Virus record (IMG/VR): IMGVR_UViG_3300033463_000004
Coordinates: 198,695 to 262,694 of that record
Reading direction: 5' to 3' (one strand)
Source of the DNA: a virus
Taxonomy: Duplodnaviria; Caudoviricetes
Length of the DNA stretch: 64,000 nucleotides
The position numbers and the translations under genes were made by a program. Shown here piece by piece: positions 40,926-57,100 of this stretch (position 1 is its first letter; each line of letters begins with the position of its first letter). The notes under the pieces were generated by a model. It saw nothing but the letters and a program-made list of their open reading frames with translations. It was not told the DNA's origin and made no database searches.

Positions 40926-41513
40926 TGTAATTGTACGGCGAGGTTCTGTGAAGCCGAGCTCTGTACCGTAATGTGAATGTAAAGTACAATGTTGTTTAGT
41001 CCTGTATTGGTGAAGTCTGGTCACGTGATATGTCGTCATCTGTTGTGTTGTAAAGGTAGAGTATAGTGACGTTTGGTCAAGTGGCGTAAAGGTGAAGTTA
41101 TGCCTAGTAACGTATTGTAACGGTGGTGTACCGTGTCGTCGCGTTGAGTAATTGTGGATGTTTTGTATAGTATTTGTAGAGTATTGTGTAGTGATGTTCT
41201 GTATAGGCACAGTGTCGTGTCGTCTTGTTCAGTTGTGTGTACTGTGCTGTTAGGTTCAGTACTGTCTCGTTTTGGTACGGTGCGGTACGGTGGTGTCAAG
41301 TTCTGTAGATGTATCGTTTCGTATCGTGATGTGAAGCCTAGTAAAGGCGAAGCGTGGTTCAGAAAGGTAAAGTGACGTTTTATCAAGTAGAGTGTAAGGT
41401 AATGCGGGATATCGTTATGTGACGTATCGTAAAGTATTGGCAACGTGTAGTTGCGTTTTGTTTGGTGGAGTCACGTATATGCACAGTTTGGTTTTGTCCG
41501 ATATAGTATAGCA
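40926..41513 (+). repeat. NGY-NN pentamer array A (candidate guide-RNA array)
   Basis: 5-nt periodic GT/GC, e.g. AGT GT CGT GT CGT CT TGT TC AGT TG TGT; ends at terminator. Confidence 0.85.
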
Positions 41514-41515
41514 TT

Positions 41516-41553
41516 AAAAAAAAAGAGGGAGGTTCGCCTCCCTCTTTTTTTTT
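41516..41553 (+). terminator. intrinsic terminator after array A
   Basis: AAGAGGGAGG-TTCG-CCTCCCTCTT followed by T run. Confidence 0.9.
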
Positions 41554-41557
41554 GTAT

Positions 41558-41576: not shown

Positions 41577-41640
41577 TTAATGTAAATGGATGATGTCATC
41601 CAAACAAATCCAAAATATTTATGAAAGTGAGGAATTAAAA

Positions 41641-42948
41641 ATGAAATTATCAGAAAGGATTTCTGCAATTATTGCTGTTGCAGAACTGCACGCGCAGGAG
41701 AATATTATCTTGGCTGATTGGTACGAAAGTACCGCAAAAGCGGCCAAAGATATCAACACGGAAGTCGGAAACAAAATTTCCGAGTTCGAGAATATTGCGC
41801 TCGCTTTGACCGCACTTGACCCGAAGGTTGCTGTCATCGATAGTAGTATTATAGAGGGAGGTACCGAAGCTCTTTATAATGCGATTAAATTATATGATTA
41901 CTCAAATACAATATATGGCGGAGTAATCAAAGCGTCTGTTGACGCTCTTGTAACGATCGGCGAACAGCTGGTTGCAGCTGTACGAAACATCGCGATTCTG
42001 GAATACGCGATGAATCTTCGCAATGATAGCTCAGATGTTGCGCTGACAATTGAGAAACCGGAATCTTTTAAAACAGATGAACCTGAAATTATTGAACCTG
42101 AATCAGAACCGGAACCGGAATCTTCTGAAACATCTGAAACAGAAGAACCTGTCATTTCATCTCTTCGTGAAGATCCGAAGGAAACGGAACCGATCGAAAA
42201 TGAACCGATGTTGTTTGGTATTCCGGTTAGTCAGCTGGCTACAACGGAAACTGAACAAGAAAAAATCCGGCGAATCACCGAAGAACCTGTTGTGGAAAAA
42301 CCTGTAATGCCGAATAAGGCACAGAACCCGCAGGATAATCCGAAAGGATTCATACCAATTGTCATTCCAGGATATCCGGAAGATAAGTTCTGTCTGTCGC
42401 CAGAAAATGCGATCGTGGATAGAAACCATGGTCGTATGTACCGTGCCAATTACAAAAAGCATGGTAAATATTATTTTAGATTGAAAGCGCCAGATGGAAA
42501 ATCCGATGTTTTCTTTGAACTCGAGGAGATTATTAATCTCACTCGGAATACTGTAGAAACCGCAGAAACCGTCGACGACAAACCCGTCGTAGACGATGAT
42601 AAACCAGATGATCCATATGTATGGGTCGACTGGTTCGACGGTATCCCGAAGAGAAAATATAAAGTTTTCAAATCGGGTAAAGTGTACGATTGTGTACACC
42701 AAATTTATCTGCCGTATGACAAGAAGTACGAAACTGTACGACTTTCATCCGGCGATATAGAATCTCGATCGGTCGGAACAAGATCGACTGTCAAAGCGCT
42801 GAAACGTCAGTCGCTTGTTTGGCAGGCTTTCCATCCCGATTACAGATGTGGAGATGGACGCAAGAAAGTCTATATCTCTTTCAAAGATGATAATAGACAG
42901 AATTGTGCACTCGAAAATCTGTACGTCGGTGTATCTGCACCCGATTGA
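41641..42948 (+). CDS. protein with C-terminal degenerate NUMOD4/HNH-like domain
   Basis: YKVFKSGKV...LVWQAF...FKDDNRQNCALENL; acidic linker. Confidence 0.6.
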   Translation: MKLSERISAIIAVAELHAQENIILADWYESTAKAAKDINTEVGNKISEFENIALALTALDPKVAVIDSSIIEGGTEALYNAIKLYDYSNTIYGGVIKASVDALVTIGEQLVAAVRNIAILEYAMNLRNDSSDVALTIEKPESFKTDEPEIIEPESEPEPESSETSETEEPVISSLREDPKETEPIENEPMLFGIPVSQLATTETEQEKIRRITEEPVVEKPVMPNKAQNPQDNPKGFIPIVIPGYPEDKFCLSPENAIVDRNHGRMYRANYKKHGKYYFRLKAPDGKSDVFFELEEIINLTRNTVETAETVDDKPVVDDDKPDDPYVWVDWFDGIPKRKYKVFKSGKVYDCVHQIYLPYDKKYETVRLSSGDIESRSVGTRSTVKALKRQSLVWQAFHPDYRCGDGRKKVYISFKDDNRQNCALENLYVGVSAPD

Positions 42949-48030: not shown

Positions 48031-48631
48031 GTTACAAAACTTGATATTGGGCATACTGTTAACAGTATGCCTGATTATTACTGTCATATTATTGGCATAT
48101 GGTTCATCAAACAAAAATATGAACGAATTATCATCTATCGAAGAAACGACAACCTGTACAACAATGACAACAACCACGTCGGCAACAACGACCACAACAA
48201 CGACAATTACGACGGTGACAACTGTAATCACAACAACGACGGAAGCAACGACAACTACAACCGCGACACACGATATCAAGGATAGGTTTGTTGATTACGG
48301 TTTCTTCCGCGCAACCTACTATCACGGAGAAGGAGCTAATCCGTGTCCCGGGGGCTCCGGTCGTATGCTTCTCGATTGTTCACCGAAACTTGATGAAATA
48401 AAAGGTTCGGTTGCATGTCGTCGAGTGCAAGAAGATTATGGGTATAATATTAATGGCAGAACCCGTGTATGGCTTGAGTTTACTAAATATCCAACCATGA
48501 CCGGCTGGTATTTCGTGGATGATGCATGTCGCGACTATGATGTTGTTGATGTGTATTTTATCGAGTATTCGGATTGTCCATGGGAGCATGACGGAAATGC
48601 AGAAGTGCATTTGTGGCTCGAACCGTCTTAA
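48005..48631 (+). CDS. membrane-anchored Thr-rich protein with 3D-like (cell-wall hydrolase) domain
   Basis: TM helix, poly-Thr linker, RATYY..GSVA..VDDAC..VVDVYF. Confidence 0.6.
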   Translation: MMKTITKNKLQNLILGILLTVCLIITVILLAYGSSNKNMNELSSIEETTTCTTMTTTTSATTTTTTTITTVTTVITTTTEATTTTTATHDIKDRFVDYGFFRATYYHGEGANPCPGGSGRMLLDCSPKLDEIKGSVACRRVQEDYGYNINGRTRVWLEFTKYPTMTGWYFVDDACRDYDVVDVYFIEYSDCPWEHDGNAEVHLWLEPS

Positions 48632-48642
48632 GATTAAAATAC

Positions 48643-48918
48643 TGAAGTCATCGATAGCGATACAGGGAGTAGTTCTGCGGAGTAAAGTGACGGCAAGGTG
48701 TGGTGTGGCATAATAACGTATGTCAATGTATTGTCAAGGTGCCGGAAAGCAAGGCTCCGTGGTGTTTTGTGACGCTTTGGTTGAGCATTAGTACAGTGCA
48801 ACAATGTGTTGTATCGGTCGAGTCAAGTCTTGTTCCGTGCAGTACTGTGGTGTTTAGTAAAGTAATGGTAAGGCACAGTATGGCGCTTCGTGACTCAGCA
48901 ACGTAACGGTTGTGTGTA
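48643..48918 (+). repeat. NGY-NN pentamer array B
   Basis: e.g. TGT AT CGG TCG AGT CA AGT CT TGT TC CGT GC AGT AC TGT GG TGT TT AGT AA AGT. Confidence 0.75.
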
Positions 48919-48943
48919 ATAAGGAGAGGACTGATCATGAGAA

Positions 48944-49408
48944 ATGAATAAGAAAACTTCGGTAGATGAAGTCTTATACTTTATCCACCATATTTTCGAC
49001 GGAAAAACTTGTGAAGAACGTAATGTCATTCACAAGTTTTTCGGATGTGGATATTGTTATTATTTCGCATCAATGTTGAAAGCAGCTTTCCTTCGCGGTC
49101 ACATTGCGTGGGCTGCACCGTATTCCCACTGTGTGTGGGTTGATGTTGATGGGACTCCGTACGATATCGAGGGAATATACGACGGCGAATATTCTTATTT
49201 GATTCCAATAGAATTTGCCGAAACTGTATGTGACAAATTCAAACATATATTTCGGCATAATTCTGAATATTCAGAATCATATATCGTATACGTTACACAA
49301 GAAGATATCCAACATGTTTGCCGCGCGTACTGCGCGGCGAATAATATCAAGTATCAAGACCAGTATGGGGATTGGTATAAATGGAAAGGAGATGTGACGA
49401 AATGGTGA
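48944..49408 (+). CDS. hypothetical protein, possible Cys-His-Asp papain-like fold
   Basis: GYCYYFA...SHCVW...YDIEG. Confidence 0.65.
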   Translation: MNKKTSVDEVLYFIHHIFDGKTCEERNVIHKFFGCGYCYYFASMLKAAFLRGHIAWAAPYSHCVWVDVDGTPYDIEGIYDGEYSYLIPIEFAETVCDKFKHIFRHNSEYSESYIVYVTQEDIQHVCRAYCAANNIKYQDQYGDWYKWKGDVTKW

Positions 49409-49908
49409 CTTTAGTAGTCGACGGGCACATCATAAGTGACGTCGAAAAATTCATTCGTCTGGCATTGACAGCCAGCGATCCAATGACCGATGATGCTATG
49501 CAATCCGTCGCATTGAATGCATTGAAAGAAATGCGGGCATTGGTCACTGTTCCTGATCGGAGCACACACAATGACATCATGTGGGACTCACCAGATGATA
49601 TTCACCGAGATATCTTCACGAATGTACTCGGAAACGCGGGTGTGTCGCCAGCTTTAACGAAGCTGGATAAAGTTGGTATCACAACCGAAGCACAGCTGAA
49701 GAATTTCATTATTGCCGCACATCGACCGGAAGGTTTCGGTGCAAAGACCATCGGTTTAATCGCCGAATATGTGTACATTCGTGGTCTGACATCAAGTCCT
49801 GAAAACATCGTGTCCAGGTTTTACAAACCTGGGTGGCATGAATATAATCTTGCCATGAATACGATCGCCGAAACCAAATGGCGGCGATGGAACACGATCA
49901 TTGACTAA
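49402..49908 (+). CDS. hypothetical protein
   Basis: ATG after AAGGAG. Confidence 0.65.
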   Translation: MVTLVVDGHIISDVEKFIRLALTASDPMTDDAMQSVALNALKEMRALVTVPDRSTHNDIMWDSPDDIHRDIFTNVLGNAGVSPALTKLDKVGITTEAQLKNFIIAAHRPEGFGAKTIGLIAEYVYIRGLTSSPENIVSRFYKPGWHEYNLAMNTIAETKWRRWNTIID

Positions 49909-49911
49909 ATA

Positions 49912-51278
49912 CTGTGTACAGGCAAGGTACTATACAGCAGAATTCCGTGCAGCTATGGCAAAATAGTGTATTGTAAGGTGAGGTGTGGTAATGCTTAGCT
50001 GTGGTATGGCAGTGCAAAGTTCTGTTCGGTATTGGTGGGGTTTAGTATCGTGGCGTCGTGTTTGGCAAAGCAAAGGTATTGTACGGTCATGGTAGGGTTG
50101 TGTTCGGTTCAGTTGTGTGTGGTACCGTTGTGTCATGGTGCTGTGCTGTTCGGTACGGTATCGTACTGTAGCGTGCCGTAGAGGTGTGGTAGAGCAATGT
50201 TCGGTAGCATGATGTTCTGTGATGGTCTGGTATTGTGAAGTATTGTGGTATAATGTGCAGTGATGGTTTAGTGTCGTTATGTAGAGTATCATTTAGTCAT
50301 GTAATGGTGACGTCAGGTATGGTATAGTTATGTCCTGTGGAGGCATGGTATGGTTATGTCCTGTGGAGGCATGGTATGGTTATGTCCTGTGGAGGTGTAG
50401 TATAGTCAATGTTACGCACCGTGGCGTACAGTCTGGTGTGGTCCAGTAATTGTCCCGTGCAGTAGGGTGAAGTTTGGTGAAGGTACTGTATTGTATAATA
50501 GGGTGCGGAATAGTGATGTACAGGTATTGTATCGTAAATGAATAGCAAAGCGGAGTGGTGTATTACTCAGTATCGCAAAGGTAAGGTGTCGTAAGATAAG
50601 GTGCTGTCTCGCAAAGGTGTGGTCACGTCTTGTGATATTCAGTAAAGCAATGCAAATGTAGAGCAAAGCTGATCGCCGTGTGATAGGGTAACGTAACGGT
50701 TCAGTGTTTGTCAAGTGACGCGGCATGACGTTGAGTGAAGTGTCGTAATTGTAAAGTGGCGCAAGATCAGGTACCGTTGTATCGTGTAAAGTATAGGTAT
50801 AATGAAGCGACGTCTTGTTTGGTTCCGTCAGGTAATTGTGAAGCCGCGTGACGTTTTGTGTTGTAAAGGTTCTGTCGTGTTTCGATTGTATTGTGAATGT
50901 ATGGTAACGTTCGATATTGTGCATTCATGCGTTGTCAAGGTAAAGCGGCGTACAGTAAGGTATAGCTTCGTATCGTTTCGTAATGGTGAGGCGAAGTTTG
51001 GTTTCGTCAAGTAAAGGTAAGGTACAGCTTCGTGTCGTTTCGTAATGGTGAGGCGAGGTTTGGTTTAGTCAAGTAAGTGTGAAGCCTGGTGTTGTGGAGT
51101 CGGGTCATGTTATGTCTTGTACTGTACAGTGAATGTATTGTTCCGCAATTGTGACGTAGCGTTTCGTGTCGTGACGTGAAGCTGAGTAAAGGTAATGTAC
51201 GATTTTGTCAAGTTTAGTCAAGTAAGTGCAAGGTTTAGAGCCGTGACGTGCGGTCCTGTAATGTCAAGGTATAGCTAT
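49912..51278 (+). repeat. NGY-NN pentamer array C (~1.37 kb), upstream of Cas7-like gene
   Basis: e.g. GGT GC TGT GC TGT TC GGT AC GGT AT CGT AC TGT AG CGT GC CGT; periodic 6-nt phase slips before GGY. Confidence 0.9.
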
Positions 51279-51303
51279 GGATTATATATGAAAATTTTTA
51301 TGA

Positions 51304-51322
51304 TTTTCATATATATATCATT
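51304..51322 (+). promoter_or_regulatory. putative phage promoter motif of Cas7-like gene
   Basis: TTTTCATATATATATCATT. Confidence 0.65.
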
Positions 51323-51407
51323 ATGGTGATCCGAAGGACAATTATACCTTCGGAAGTAAAGTTTATTTTAATTTTGTAAGGGCTTAGTCCCAGAAAGGAA
51401 GACCATT

Positions 51408-52133
51408 ATGGCAACTGAAACAACCGCAAAGAAAACATCCGCAAAAAAAGCTGCTTCTGCAGCACCCCGCATCGCATATTATTTATCTGCAAAGATTACA
51501 TTCATTTCACCGTTGTTGGCAACAAATGCCAATGATCCTCAGATTTATTCTGAGTATCTGGCTAGTCTCGCCAATGACGAGACCCGTGCTGCCGAAATCG
51601 AACGTCTCGGTCTTGCCGAGGTGGATGAGAAAGGCATGACTGTCTTTCTCCGTAATCCGGATAATCCGATGCAACCCCAGTTGAAGGGGTATACTTGGCT
51701 GGGCTTTTTGAAGTCCAGATCAAGAGCTCTGGCAAAGGTTGACGGCACCCAGATCAAGGGTATGTCGGCCTATATTAAGGAAATCGACGACAGAATCTTT
51801 GTGTCGCCAATTTTTATCAATCTGGATTTACCGGAAGGAGAAGCAATTGACACCCTTCAGAGACCGCTGAGAGCAGCTACCATGCAGGGTGATCGCGTTG
51901 CATTGGCAAAATCCGAAACTGTGCCGGAAGGTACGACTTGTGAAGTCACATTCCGTACGGAGACTCTGGACGGAATGAAACTCGTGATTGAGTGTCTGGA
52001 TTACGGAAAGATCCATGGCACTGGTCAATGGCGAAACGCCGGATATGGGCGTTTCACCTGGGAAAAAATTGACCAATGGAAAGAATACATCGACAAAGTC
52101 AAACTCGAGGAAGACGACTTCCCGATGAGATAA
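51408..52133 (+). CDS. stand-alone Cas7/Csm3-like RAMP protein
   Basis: KITFISPLL beta1; LKGYTWLGFLKS helix; thumb QRPLRA; SETVPEGT; G-rich loop LDYGKIHGTGQWRNAGYGRF. Confidence 0.8.
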   Translation: MATETTAKKTSAKKAASAAPRIAYYLSAKITFISPLLATNANDPQIYSEYLASLANDETRAAEIERLGLAEVDEKGMTVFLRNPDNPMQPQLKGYTWLGFLKSRSRALAKVDGTQIKGMSAYIKEIDDRIFVSPIFINLDLPEGEAIDTLQRPLRAATMQGDRVALAKSETVPEGTTCEVTFRTETLDGMKLVIECLDYGKIHGTGQWRNAGYGRFTWEKIDQWKEYIDKVKLEEDDFPMR

Positions 52134-52142
52134 CTTTGTCTG

Positions 52143-52188
52143 AATTTAACGGCGTCATGTGTAAAAAGCATGACGCCGTTAAATTTTT
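52143..52188 (+). terminator. 17-bp stem hairpin after Cas7-like gene
   Basis: AATTTAACGGCGTCATG-N9-CATGACGCCGTTAAATT. Confidence 0.65.
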
Positions 52189-52191
52189 CTA

Positions 52192-52317
52192 TGATGCGGT
52201 GGTACGGTAGCGTATGATTCTGCACTGCGCAGTAATGTAAATGCGAAGTGACGTATGGTCTAGTCTGGTGTTGTAAATGCATTGTTTTGAGGCGTTATGT
52301 TGTGTCTCGTAAAGTAT
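52192..52317 (+). repeat. NGY-NN pentamer array D
   Basis: TGC GA AGT GA CGT AT GGT CT AGT CT GGT GT TGT AA. Confidence 0.7.
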
Positions 52318-52335
52318 AATACTTTAAATATAATT

Positions 52336-52422
52336 GCTGGTGTGGCGGAATTGGCAGACGCAAGGGACTTAAAATCCCTCGGTGGATACATCATACGGGT
52401 TCGATTCCCGTCACCAGCACCA
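52336..52422 (+). tRNA. tRNA-Leu(TAA), CCA encoded
   Basis: AGGGA-CT TAA AA-TCCCT. Confidence 0.93.
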
Positions 52423-52548
52423 ATCTCTTACACTGTATTTTCTGAAGCAATTGTTTCAGAGAACACGGGCTGCATGTGTAAGAGTACTTTCGATATACGA
52501 CGGCGGTGATAGCACCCCATCATTCGCTGTCGTATATTGATATTTTAC

Positions 52549-52622
52549 GGGCTTTTAGCGCAGTTGGTTAGCGCTCCCGGCTCATAACCGGTTGGTCCAG
52601 GGTTCGAGTCCCTGAAAGCCCA
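52549..52622 (+). tRNA. tRNA with CAT anticodon (Ile2-like, or Met)
   Basis: CCGG-CT CAT AA-CCGG. Confidence 0.88.
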
Positions 52623-52663
52623 TCCATATAATTATTATTTGACGAGAATACTGTATAATATTT

Positions 52664-52751
52664 GGAGGTGTACTCAAGAGGCTGAAGAGTTCGGTCTTGA
52701 AAACCGATAGGGCGTGAAAGCGTCGCAGGGGTTCAAATCCCTTCACCTCCG
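52664..52751 (+). tRNA. tRNA-Ser(TGA)
   Basis: TCGGT-CT TGA AA-ACCGA, long variable arm. Confidence 0.92.
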
Positions 52752-53577
52752 TCATCAAGTATTCTCCATTCAATCAAACCGCCTGACGATTCCGATGAGT
52801 TTTATCAGCTTTCTGTTCCAGTACAAGCTGATACGAAAATGTCGATCAGGTTCCTAAAATATGTATATAATATCTGCTTTTCTATAAGCACCTCACCGGG
52901 GTTTAAAGGTACCCCCAACCTGTGTCCAATAATTGTCTTTATCTGCCATTATGTTCTCGCATGACACGAGGACAACAACAACAACCACGGACACCGTGCT
53001 ACAGTATTATATATGTAACCAGGGGTTTACATACATGCGGTTTACCCTGGATCCGCTTACTTCTTCCGCCCACATACACTCGGGTGGATTCTTCCTTATT
53101 CATTCAAACCTCCTAACATCTGCACTAGGATAGTTAGGTTTAGAAAAGAAAATCTTGCCAATAGGTCACGAGCATCCTGTACTCGCTTTACATTGGCACG
53201 AGGCTCTGTCCGGGTTACATCAATGAGGTTACCGGACATTACGAAAAACGATGATGATGGTCTATCTTGACGATATGTCGGTCTGTCACTCGAGAACAGC
53301 GTCTGATATATCCGTGACAAAATGAGGTAATAAACGATTACGCGCGTAATCGCTAATACGATAGTATTCCTGACCATCACCAATTGCTTATGCCGGATCG
53401 CGTTCGACGGCGCCATATCGAATGCGTTCCATTCCCATAAGACTCCAGCATGAGGAGTTTACACGGCGGGTTTGCACTATTGAATGTTTCAGAGAGGTAA
53501 CGAATGAGTACCAGAAGAGGTTTGTCTAGCATGCTGACTAGCCTCCCCGCTATAGAAATGTAAAAAACAGTCAATTT

Positions 53578-53648
53578 GCACGTGTAGTTCAATGGTAGAA
53601 TACCAGCCTTCCAAGCTGGGTATACGGGTTCGATTCCCGTTACGTGCT
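53578..53648 (+). tRNA. tRNA-Gly(TCC)
   Basis: CCAGC-CT TCC AA-GCTGG. Confidence 0.92.
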
Positions 53649-53870
53649 TCGAACATGAAGCTGTGGTATGTTTGCAATGAGCATAGCCGCGAGTTAAATT
53701 CTTTCCCTGCTGTGTTGGATAGATAGGCGGAAAGAGCCGTAAAGGTAATGGGTCCACATGTTTAACATCAGCTTGAATCATGTTCTATGTCATGTCGCCG
53801 GATGTACCCTAACAACGTGGGAGGTTGTGAAGCTCACGTTGTTAGGTGTCGGTGACACCAATAATTTTAT

Positions 53871-53945
53871 TGTGGTATCGCCAAGGGGAAAGGCATCAGA
53901 CTTTGACTCTGACATTCGTAGGTTCGAATCCTACTACCACAACCA
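53871..53945 (+). tRNA. tRNA-Gln(TTG), CCA encoded
   Basis: TCAGA-CT TTG AC-TCTGA. Confidence 0.92.
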
Positions 53946-54093
53946 ACAAAATCTTTTAATTCGTATCAGCATAAAATTTCAAGGTCACACTCGTTTTGTG
54001 CTGATAAATAGGTCTTCACTTTCAATGATTTTATGTGACCTTATTTTCCGTGCATGGACGCAGTACCTCCATGCACATTTTTTTTTTGAAATA

Positions 54094-54120
54094 ATGAAGC
54101 GGGGCAATGCCCCGCTTCAT
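54094..54120. terminator. terminator hairpin
   Basis: ATGAAGCGGGGCA-A-TGCCCCGCTTCAT. Confidence 0.75.
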
Positions 54121-54133
54121 CTTTATTTTTTAT

Positions 54134-57100
54134 TTAGACATTCGTCCAATTGTGTGATTCTTGATCATATAATCTTAAATCAACTCTTCCAGTTTGTGTA
54201 TTTTCATCAATTAATAATGTTTTGTAATTTACAGGATCACCATCCGAATTCAAAACATCTGTTGTATTTGAAATATTTGAACCACGGAGGATTGTCATTT
54301 TTACTGGTGTAAATTCACGTGGGTCTTCACCATCCGTACTCATGAATTTGAATGTTTCGGTTTCAAGAATACTTGGGAATACCAATCTCCATGAACCCTT
54401 CGGTTGTGACAAACGACGTGCTTCTTCATTGATATTGACAATCTTTGTGAATCCTGGTTGTTGATAAATATCGTCTGTTGTTGATGCTGATGAATATACT
54501 GGATTATTTGTGTAAATATTAAATGCTGTTTTTGCTGTACCGGATTCATTCTTAATCAAACTATATTTTGTTTGATTAGCTGTATCAATGATTTCAATAT
54601 TACCCCAATCAAAATATTCACGAACGACATATAATTCACGTGTATGTGCGTTTACATAATACTTCTCATGAAGTTCTGAATTGGGATCAAACATCCAAAC
54701 CATTGGACCAACATGTGGAACATTCCACATGATTGTTGTTTGTGTATTGGTATGAACATATTTGTCTGTTGTCAGATTATTTCCTGGTAATGTTGATGTT
54801 GAATCAGTTGTTTGTAGGTTATTCAATGAACGATGAATCACACCATAAATGAAATCAAAGTTAGATGAATCAGATTGGTCGAGCCATCTCCAGAAGATGT
54901 ATGAATCAAATATCATACCACCGTCTTCTTTAATTTTTTGCAATACTGCAGATTCACTACGATAATTTGCATGCAATTGTTTGACGCCACGACAATACAG
55001 TTTATTGATATCGACAACTGTAAGATCATCATACATGTCAGTATCTGATGTTGCTGCTGTTGAAGGAACATGTACAGGTGTACAATTTGTATCAACAACA
55101 TTAATGGATGATGCTGTTGTAAATACATTCAAAAGAACATCTGTTGCATATTCTTTCATCGGATTCACAGGAAGTGTTCGTGCTGACGGAAGAATTGAAT
55201 TGATATAAGAATCACGTAATGATACTTCACCTCTGACAGATGCTGTTTCTGATGCATATGATTGTGCAATCAATTGTTGTTTTACCCATTCATTACCTGG
55301 ATGCGTAACATACCAGATTCCATCAAAATCAGAAACGAATGCAAACAAATCATCGAATAATAATCCTTTCTTTGGAATTAATTCTGCATAATTTGCAATC
55401 TGTAATGCAATCTTTAATCCTGTTCCAGAAAATGCATTATATCGATTATTTGGTGACGTACCATATGGGAGTGTCAAACCGGATGACGTTTCTGTTGATA
55501 CAAAATTGAAGTTTGCAAGATTGATTCTTGTATCTGATGAATCATTTGATGCGATTTCTGCCGACAGAACAGATCCTGTTGTTGATACTGCAGTCACAAC
55601 ATATGTGAATGAATATCCACCAACAACAATTGTTCCAGATGATCCTTCACTATATCCTGAACCGCCATCTGCGATATATCCAACAGATACGTCATTTGGA
55701 TCAACACCACGATTCAGATTTGTAATTTCTCTGAAATCATTATGATACATCAGGTCAACTTGATTCAACAAATCCATGGAATCAAATACAAATTCATTTG
55801 ATTGTGTATCTGGTTCTCCTGTATAAATCGGAATACCCTCTGCATCAAGTGCTGTTGGACGAACCCATCTTGACTTTGCTCCATTCTGTAAGAAATATTC
55901 ATCGCGTTCTGTATATGATGCTTCTGAACGGACATATTGCTTATCAACAACAGATGTTGGAGCTAAACCTGAAATGTTCGATAATTGCATGACAGATACA
56001 GGAATATCGCAGATACGTGCAATTGTTCTTTCAGGTTTTGGATTTTTTGCAGTTGCATTATTGATATATTTTGGATCATCATTCGAAAGAACATAAACTC
56101 TTCCGATCTGAGATGGATCGACATCATCAATTGTATATGGTGCTTCGATTTCTTCAATCTGTTCCATCTCAATTGCCAATACCAAATTAATTCCGGTTGT
56201 GAATGTGTGCAACCACCATGGGGTTCCGTCTTGCATTAAACCATCACCTGTACCGGATAATTGTGCATTACGGACTTCCATTAATTCATTAATATCATAC
56301 TCATTATCATACAGCCATTTTGTTGTCAGATGATTTCCTGTGAGTGTCATTGGATCATATGTTTCTTCATTTGCTGATCCGGATTTCAAACTTGATATTT
56401 GTGAGAATTCACCTGGAGCAATATAATCATAAACTGTTCCAGTGCCCATATCGAAATAAAGTTTTCCATATTCAGGTTCAATTTCATGTTGTTTTGTATT
56501 ATCTTCATAGAAACGATCTGTGTCATTATCATAATAACCATATACCATATCTTTGACAGTATCTTCTGCATCAATTCGAAGATAATTGTGATTCTGTGTA
56601 TAAATATACTCAAACAATGTTAATCTGTCAACATAAACATTATTCATACTTGGTTCAATCAATATTGTATACGACATATCTTCGTAGAAATTATAATCTG
56701 CTGAATTGTAATATCCCCATATTGCATACATTGGTTGAACATCAGATACAACACCAAATTCATCAGTTGATGTTATCTCAAATAATGTTCTTCCACGAGA
56801 TCCATCATTTAAATTGACCCAAAATCTATTATGATCACTTAATAAATCTGCATTGAAATCTGTTAAACGGATATATTGTGAAGATAATTCATTATATTGA
56901 TAATTAAATTCTGTTAATTTATCAATGAATAATTTACCTGGATCAGGTGTGATTTCTGTCACATACGTTAATTCTTCATAGAACTTTCCATCATTCGAAT
57001 TATAATAACCATGAACAACGACTTGTTCATTCATTTTGTGATTATAACCCGTTCCGCCTGATATAACGGAGACGCTTTTAATTTTGTATTGTCCTGGGTG

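Follow-up and report, generated by a model that had tools for sequence, protein, structure and literature searches.

Hexamer-punctuated pentamer arrays beside a Vipr-like RAMP gene in a rumen jumbo phage: a large and likely example of VIPR

The final 64 kb of the 262,694-bp genome of a rumen jumbo phage (IMG/VR record IMGVR_UViG_3300033463_000004; this whole stretch of 64,000 nucleotides is called the window below) carries two long arrays of five-base repeats that are interrupted at bounded intervals by a single six-base unit, and directly after the longer array lies a gene for a lone RAMP protein. We consider it likely that the locus is a VIPR (Viral Interference Programmable Repeat) system in which each run of pentamers started by a hexamer is a separate guide or filament segment. 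The assignment to VIPR is made because the NNNG(T/C) arrays adjoin a Cas7-type RAMP that is a remote homologue of SUSP1 Vipr and keeps its tryptophan-arginine pair. The locus is thus a large new example of VIPR and no new kind of system.

VIPR, a CRISPR-related form of phage silencing, was first described in 2026 preprints (10.64898/2026.04.26.720920, 10.64898/2026.04.26.720927). Most genes for Vipr, a minimal RAMP, belong to phages, and its vrRNAs are runs of GGY/NN pentamers. The NN bases pair with double-stranded DNA and leave out one target base in three, as a rule the wobble base of a codon; competing phages and satellites are repressed in this way (10.64898/2026.04.26.720920). Cryo-EM of the SUSP1 Vipr revealed a right-handed helical filament with one protomer per 5-nt repeat, in which W178 and R179 of a glycine-rich loop hold G2 and Y3 (10.64898/2026.04.26.720927). 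Alternative repeats (YNNNG, NNNGG and NNNNG) have also been listed, as have, in the same preprint, “staggered arrays with overlapping vrRNAs”, which its authors give without confirmation by small-RNA sequencing (10.64898/2026.04.26.720920). Motifs of the WGT/NN type are listed in a later preprint (10.64898/2026.10.21.760802), and solo or orphan vrRNAs of satellites redirect VIPR (10.64898/2026.10.15.759431).

Exactly two arrays of NNNG(T/C) pentamers occur within the window, both on the + strand. Array 2 (49,924-51,281) is made up of 224 pentamers, 39 hexamers and one tetramer, which form about 31 guide-sized units of 4-10 pentamers, and it includes the interval 50,060-50,345 in which an earlier note on this DNA had described a five-base rhythm broken by six-base slips. 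Array 1 (40,931-41,513), with 95 pentamers, 15 hexamers, two heptamers and one tetramer in about 15 guide-sized units, lies 9.9 kb upstream of the RAMP gene, hereafter vipr, and immediately 3' of a dCMP deaminase gene. Units and hexamers were called by dynamic-programming segmentation of both arrays, and the two together (0.58 kb for array 1 and 1.36 kb for array 2) hold some 46 guide-sized units, in keeping with the dozens of guides that had been predicted if, as the sequence suggests, each unit serves as one. Over the 263-kb genome, stretches of 300 nt contain 0-4 GT-to-GT gaps of exactly 5 nt, a count that climbs to as many as 34 in the two arrays, on the + strand only. Within the pentamers the fixed G is present at 91-94% and is followed by T at 84-92%, the remainder being mostly C (T/C 98-99%), and the other three positions are near-uniform; the position matching the first G of GGY is free, with 16-25% G. 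Judged by their sequence, the arrays consist of repeats of the “YNNNG” type, one of the listed variants of canonical GGY/NN. Tandem Repeats Finder detected no repeat-spacer (CRISPR) array, Rfam at the gathering threshold returned tRNAs and no other known RNA family, and blastn against GenBank phages gave no match.

In both arrays the sequence proceeds in runs of mostly 5-8 pentamers, each interrupted by one hexamer, and no run exceeds 10 pentamers. For instance, between 50,060 and 50,400 of the + strand hexamers begin at 50,072 (AAAGGT), 50,088 and 50,134 (CATGGT), 50,180 (AGAGGT), 50,221 and 50,262 (GATGGT), 50,303 (AATGGT), 50,339 and 50,365 (GGAGGC) and 50,391 (GGAGGT), separated by 2, 8, 8, 7, 7, 7, 6, 4 and 4 pentamers, respectively. 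Units of 41 nt are the most frequent (15), followed by those of 31 nt (12), 46 nt (7) and 36 nt (6). When the same number of slips was placed at random among the units, and both the spread of run lengths and the number of runs of 5-8 pentamers were scored, none of 20,000 placements was as regular as either window array; by the spread measure of this test, three arrays of two related phages gave p <=0.00015.

The hexamers are also distinct from the pentamers in sequence, with the consensus A-A-W-K-G-Y. The base preceding GY is G or T in all 54 hexamers as compared to 154 of 313 pentamers (Fisher p = 2e-15), A at the second hexamer position is enriched over pentamers (p = 9e-7), and C occupies 8 of 216 variable positions in hexamers versus 181 of 939 in pentamers; it is the hexamers alone that keep G or U at the G1 position. 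Segmentation, permutation and hexamer composition thus agree that the rhythm with slips about every 30-46 bases is real, and the segmentation that the earlier note had proposed as a check found the slips to be random in neither spacing nor sequence. Some of that note's details need correcting. Five of the six octamers quoted as slips do lie within 50,060-50,345, and the sixth, GTAAAGGT, occurs in the array but outside that interval, at 50,863, 51,011 and 51,186; at 50,070 the sequence reads GCAAAGGT and not GTAAAGGT.

Duplications inside array 2 comprise whole units. A tandem 26-nt repeat of 3.1 copies (50,315-50,395, + strand) has as each copy one unit, the hexamer GGAGGY followed by four pentamers, and each copy of a twofold 62-nt tandem repeat (50,955-51,076, + strand) consists of two 31-nt units. 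The gap upstream of vipr in a near-identical contig of 263,039 bp is exactly 26 nt shorter. As a separate observation, the near-identical contigs L232 and L233 from other samples show six differences from window positions 48,408-55,133 (6.7 kb), of which four fall inside array 2, at 50,326, 50,344, 50,352 and 50,802; two change a third variable base, one is a C/T exchange at the pyrimidine and one restores G at a fixed G.

The gene directly following array 2, vipr (51,408-52,133, + strand), encodes a 241-aa lone RAMP/Cas7-like protein with the glycine-rich loop GTGQWRNAGYGRF. Its AlphaFold2 model (pLDDT 80.8) finds as top Foldseek matches in the PDB the Cas7 of type VII and the Csm3 of type III-A (E 1e-9, probability 1.0), and its sequence profile matches type VII Cas7 at E 1e-4. 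None of the Cas7 models of NCBIfam or Pfam matches the protein, and its 2,549 homologues are unannotated. The relationship to SUSP1 Vipr was reached by way of the arrays. When IMG/VR was searched for nine GTs spaced 5 nt apart, more than 120 contigs matched, many of which have non-identical NNNGT arrays in intergenic DNA, some then followed by terminators. Clustering of the ORFs around 35 viral loci with diverse NNNGT arrays gave one family of about 190 aa (A2) that adjoins the array in 22 of the 35; A2 corresponds to no Pfam family, and its profile matches the PDB entry 36pp, “SUSP1 Vipr protein”, over its full length at E 2.6e-47. In the whole 263-kb genome the top match of the A2 HMM is the ORF at 51,408-52,133 (E 0.007), and hhalign of the window protein's own family (A1) against A2 gave 86% probability and E 4.8e-6 over 181 columns. 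The A1 profile found no direct match to 36pp, and the window protein appears to be a remote homologue of SUSP1 Vipr, linked to it through A2.

The glycine-rich loops of the two proteins read G-T-G-Q-W-R-N in the window and G-V-G-D-W-R-P in SUSP1, and W208 is retained by all of 28 members of the family to which the window protein belongs, R209 by nearly all. The position of SUSP1 D177, which contacts G1, is Q throughout this family. We considered the exchange of D177 for Q as the cause of the lost first G and rejected it, since Q is family-wide and includes relatives whose arrays partly still read GGC/NN. Other RNA binders that form rings or filaments with a spacing of about 5 nt (TRAP-like binders, Rho, CsrA or Hfq sponges) were also dropped because the neighbour is a RAMP and the array-linked family matches SUSP1 Vipr. 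The suggestion that a protein filament reads the RNA in 5-nt steps is supported, given the Cas7/RAMP fold of the adjoining 241-aa protein, its place in the Vipr superfamily and the one protomer per 5-nt repeat of SUSP1 Vipr. Among the proteins neighbouring the locus no cas-related match was found in Pfam, PHROG or NCBIfam, none of the three assigned a family to the 175-aa ORF that precedes array 2, and no neighbour except the array is conserved with the jumbo relatives L204 and L205 that could be an accessory (vap) gene.

By homology to SUSP1 Vipr, the arrays would be transcribed from the + strand, one Vipr protomer would bind each pentamer, and the conserved tryptophan-arginine pair would clamp the G and the pyrimidine. 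The exposed variable bases would then pair with double-stranded DNA in a gapped, period-3 fashion, and genes of competing phages or mobile elements would be silenced. A hexamer (A-A-W-K-G-Y) would add one base and so break the register of one protomer per 5 nt; because of this break, each in-register run, a hexamer with its 4-10 pentamers and mostly 31-46 nt in length, can be read as a separate guide or filament segment. The border itself, a C-poor AAW followed by G/U-G-Y, is probably a processing site or a signal at which filaments start.

The same grammar is found in relatives of the phage. Jumbo phages whose Vipr is 58-63% identical have, at the corresponding position, arrays of about 1 kb with equally regular slips, and their unit content is no more like that of this phage than shuffled controls are. 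The 80 closest IMG/VR loci belong to 40-kb phages with a Vipr about 45% identical, and these have arrays of NNNG(C/A/T) pentamers on both sides of the gene, with an AAAGGC, AAAGGA or AATGGC hexamer every 4-7 pentamers. An apparent absence of arrays at 78 of these 80 loci came from a caller restricted to GT and was discarded after a base-neutral period-5 scan showed NNNG(C/A) arrays. Since phages at about 45% identity have the same hexamer grammar, we regard it as a conserved property of this Vipr clade rather than an oddity of one array. We also note that a related jumbo phage has a tubulin gene (PhuZ/TubZ-like) 2.7 kb upstream of its vipr (L205:2243-3337).

Alternatively, the RNAs might be VIPR RNAs of another shape, few and very long, in which the hexamers are merely tolerated as one-base bulges and the filaments span them. 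Such a reading is consistent with the fact that no tail, ribozyme or terminator lies between units, and the staggered arrays of 10.64898/2026.04.26.720920, which are given there without small-RNA confirmation, also speak for it. We nevertheless think it unlikely, because bulges would not explain slip spacing so tightly bounded that no run passes 10 pentamers and no random placement equals it, nor a C-poor AAWKGY motif conserved over relatives of about 45% identity, nor internal duplications that comprise whole units; moreover, an extra base fits neither protomers bound at every 5 nt nor a target with a period of 3. The proposal that the slips delimit individual guides is, on this sequence evidence, supported: by the whole-unit duplications and by a hexamer motif and spacing that are kept in relatives.

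A reading without any RNA guide must also be weighed, in which the arrays are a protein-binding lattice at the DNA level, a coding repeat or a slippage satellite. The mean GY spacing is 5.14-5.16 nt, so that two units span about 10.3 bp, near the helical repeat of DNA, and internal tandem duplications are present, as would suit a lattice or a satellite. The helical phase is not kept, however, as arrays in other phages run for 20-26 pentamers without a slip; a ten-mer diversity of 0.94 makes the arrays no simple satellite; and a coding repeat is contradicted by a + strand full of stops, the long minus-strand ORFs (120-170 aa) being an artefact of AC-rich sequence. With a signal that is strictly strand-specific, terminators that follow the arrays and a Vipr/RAMP gene to which the arrays are linked, we find any such explanation very hard to credit.

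With regard to transcription, array 1 is closed on the GT strand by a strong intrinsic terminator (41,515-41,554, + strand) that has a GC-rich stem and then nine consecutive T, and in the viral loci terminators lie on the GT strand in 11 as compared to the opposite strand in three. About 75 nt before array 2 there is a sigma-70-like promoter match (49,820-49,848, + strand; TTTACA, a 17-nt spacer and TATAAT, 11/12), a resemblance to the consensus and no more. The interval that separates array 2 from vipr contains a phage promoter-like motif, TTTTCATATATATAT (51,304-51,320, + strand), which is repeated after the array 1 terminator (41,558) and at about 20 other intergenic sites of the genome and is kept before vipr in L204. 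In its recurrent intergenic form, TTTTCATATATATAT(T/C)ATTATTATGAA, the motif often comes immediately behind a GC-rich terminator, with a start codon about 40-100 nt further on, and it is probably the phage's own promoter consensus. We infer that the arrays are transcribed from the + strand, and their processing and unit ends are inferred in the same way. Right after array 1, a 452-aa ORF (window 41,590-42,948) has a weak C-terminal match to HNH endonucleases (PHROG E 6e-5); some VIPR types are reported with HNH accessory proteins, and this HNH-like ORF may be linked to the VIPR locus.

The position of array 1 bears on a further alternative, namely that one or both arrays act as decoys by which the Vipr of competing phages is titrated or diverted. 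Array 1, apart from vipr and in the 3' part of the transcript of the dCMP deaminase gene, would be the likelier candidate, and a precedent exists in the solo vrRNAs that redirect VIPR (10.64898/2026.10.15.759431). We hold this to be quite improbable, as both arrays share the repeat motif, the hexamer motif and the unit sizes, which fits one cognate protein, the phage has its own Vipr beside array 2, and the variable bases resemble codons, as those of genuine guides should.

The codon-like character of the variable bases is seen when the first two are compared with codon positions 1 and 2 of the phage's long ORFs (r = 0.90 in the sense and 0.62 in the antisense direction), which agrees with the published rule that it is the wobble base that pairing skips. 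Conditional on the first two, the third variable base also shows a weak likeness to codons (z = 2.4, p = 0.007), and stop codons are not significantly depleted, so that a read-out of 3 nt is possible but unproven. We tentatively entertain, at a rather low probability, the idea that the freed first G serves as a third guide base, giving a contiguous, codon-phased read-out of 3 nt, and that AAWKGY is a signal setting guide length at about 6-9 protomers. Under such a reading, AAWKGY would make it possible to divide a kilobase array, by cutting or phasing, into dozens of guides with no need of a tail or ribozyme. The support for this idea is thin and comes from the third variable base and from the hexamers, the only units to keep G or U at G1.

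Exact target scans were made for four guides in three collections. For the 10-repeat unit, the viral, metagenome and genome collections contained no exact period-3 match, and two 8-repeat units gave 25 and 21 viral matches, about the chance level, with random agreement at the third base. For the unit at 50,936 (50,936-50,983), 18 of 18 coded bases, counting the two that open the following hexamer, match a conserved 129-aa gene that lies between the genes for the major head and major tail proteins in at least 30 viral contigs, and the skips fall on the wobble. This match is near chance, as about 2-4 such matches are expected by our own composition-based estimate for its AT-rich pattern, and none of the other units converges on the contigs that it matches; the 129-aa head/tail-region gene is a candidate target of this unit. 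The loci in question are L266:2635-3024 (minus strand) and about 30 similar ones (L255-L356) on tailed-phage contigs. Mismatch-tolerant local searches of 4.7 Mb equalled shuffled controls, and neither these nor the exact scans yielded a significant target. Under the NN rule, units of 6-9 repeats have only 12-18 paired bases, and they are shorter than SUSP1-type vrRNAs with their 9-16 repeats.

Among the forms of VIPR already described, the slips most likely correspond to the “staggered vrRNA arrays” of 10.64898/2026.04.26.720920, as far as its S18 legend characterises them. By that legend and the methods of the preprint, both are found in phages with a lone RAMP flanked by long noncoding 5-nt arrays with a fixed G-Y and variable bases, in both the vrRNAs abut without spacers or tails, and in both other cas genes are lacking. 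In the YNNNG reading, the hexamer is a T-AAW-G repeat plus an extra G that starts the next GGY, which would fit the “1-nt overlap” of the legend. Set against the S18 legend alone, the window differs in the great length of its arrays, with their approximately 46 units over 0.58 and 1.36 kb, and in the AAWKGY consensus and modal unit of 41 nt documented here.

The type II VIPR of Escherichia phage SUSP1 (36pp) shares with the window the RAMP fold, the tryptophan-arginine pair, one repeat per presumed protomer and codon-like variable bases. Each SUSP1 vrRNA, however, is transcribed on its own, measures about 100 nt and combines 9-16 GGY/NN repeats with a 3' tail that is invariant and contains a pseudoknot, whereas in the window the first G of GGY is free, each unit has 4-10 repeats, no tail is shared and dozens of units are concatenated; no conserved neighbour resembles vap1, and the likeness of the proteins is at the profile level only. 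We have not filed the window locus as type II VIPR because its units consist of 4-10 abutting repeats without an invariant structured 3' tail.

Two side observations concern the SUSP1-like loci. In L057 (~690-745 and 826-880), L060 and L077, runs of pentamers are followed by a sequence resembling a tRNA acceptor-stem and T-arm minihelix, with GGTTCGA(C/T)TCC, the first copy in L057 being flanked by the complementary ACAATGG and CCATTGT; ARAGORN called no tRNA there. The minihelix-like sequence may be a vrRNA 3' tail and could recruit tRNA-processing enzymes. A second unannotated family, of about 170 aa, stands beside SUSP1-like vipr genes and arrays in six loci (L036, L062 at 1968-2465 on the minus strand, L076, L088, L096 and L100) and is possibly a vap accessory gene.

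As compared to class 1 CRISPR systems (Cas7/Csm3), the fold, the polymerisation along a guide RNA, the periodic flipping of bases and the quantisation of guide length by the subunit step are the same. Guide lengths in type III CRISPR are 37 and 43 nt, and those in the window would step through 31, 36, 41 and 46 nt. The arrays of the window have a period of 5 nt in place of 6, their fixed bases are part of each repeat instead of a repeat-derived handle, and there is neither a repeat-spacer array nor a gene for Cas6, Cas5, Cas10 or adaptation.

With some 46 units in a 263-kb rumen phage, the locus is an unusually large array set for VIPR. Its one-base punctuation combines a conserved sequence (AAWKGY) with a bounded spacing, a grammar that is common to jumbo and 40-kb phages. 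VIPR has been known for months only, and well-documented natural examples therefore help to define its range. If the third-base reading were true, the array grammar and the pairing rule would be ones not yet characterised experimentally. The locus offers a concrete case in which to test how “staggered” arrays that lack tails are split into guides, and it bears on whether the third variable base, here freed, contributes to target reading.
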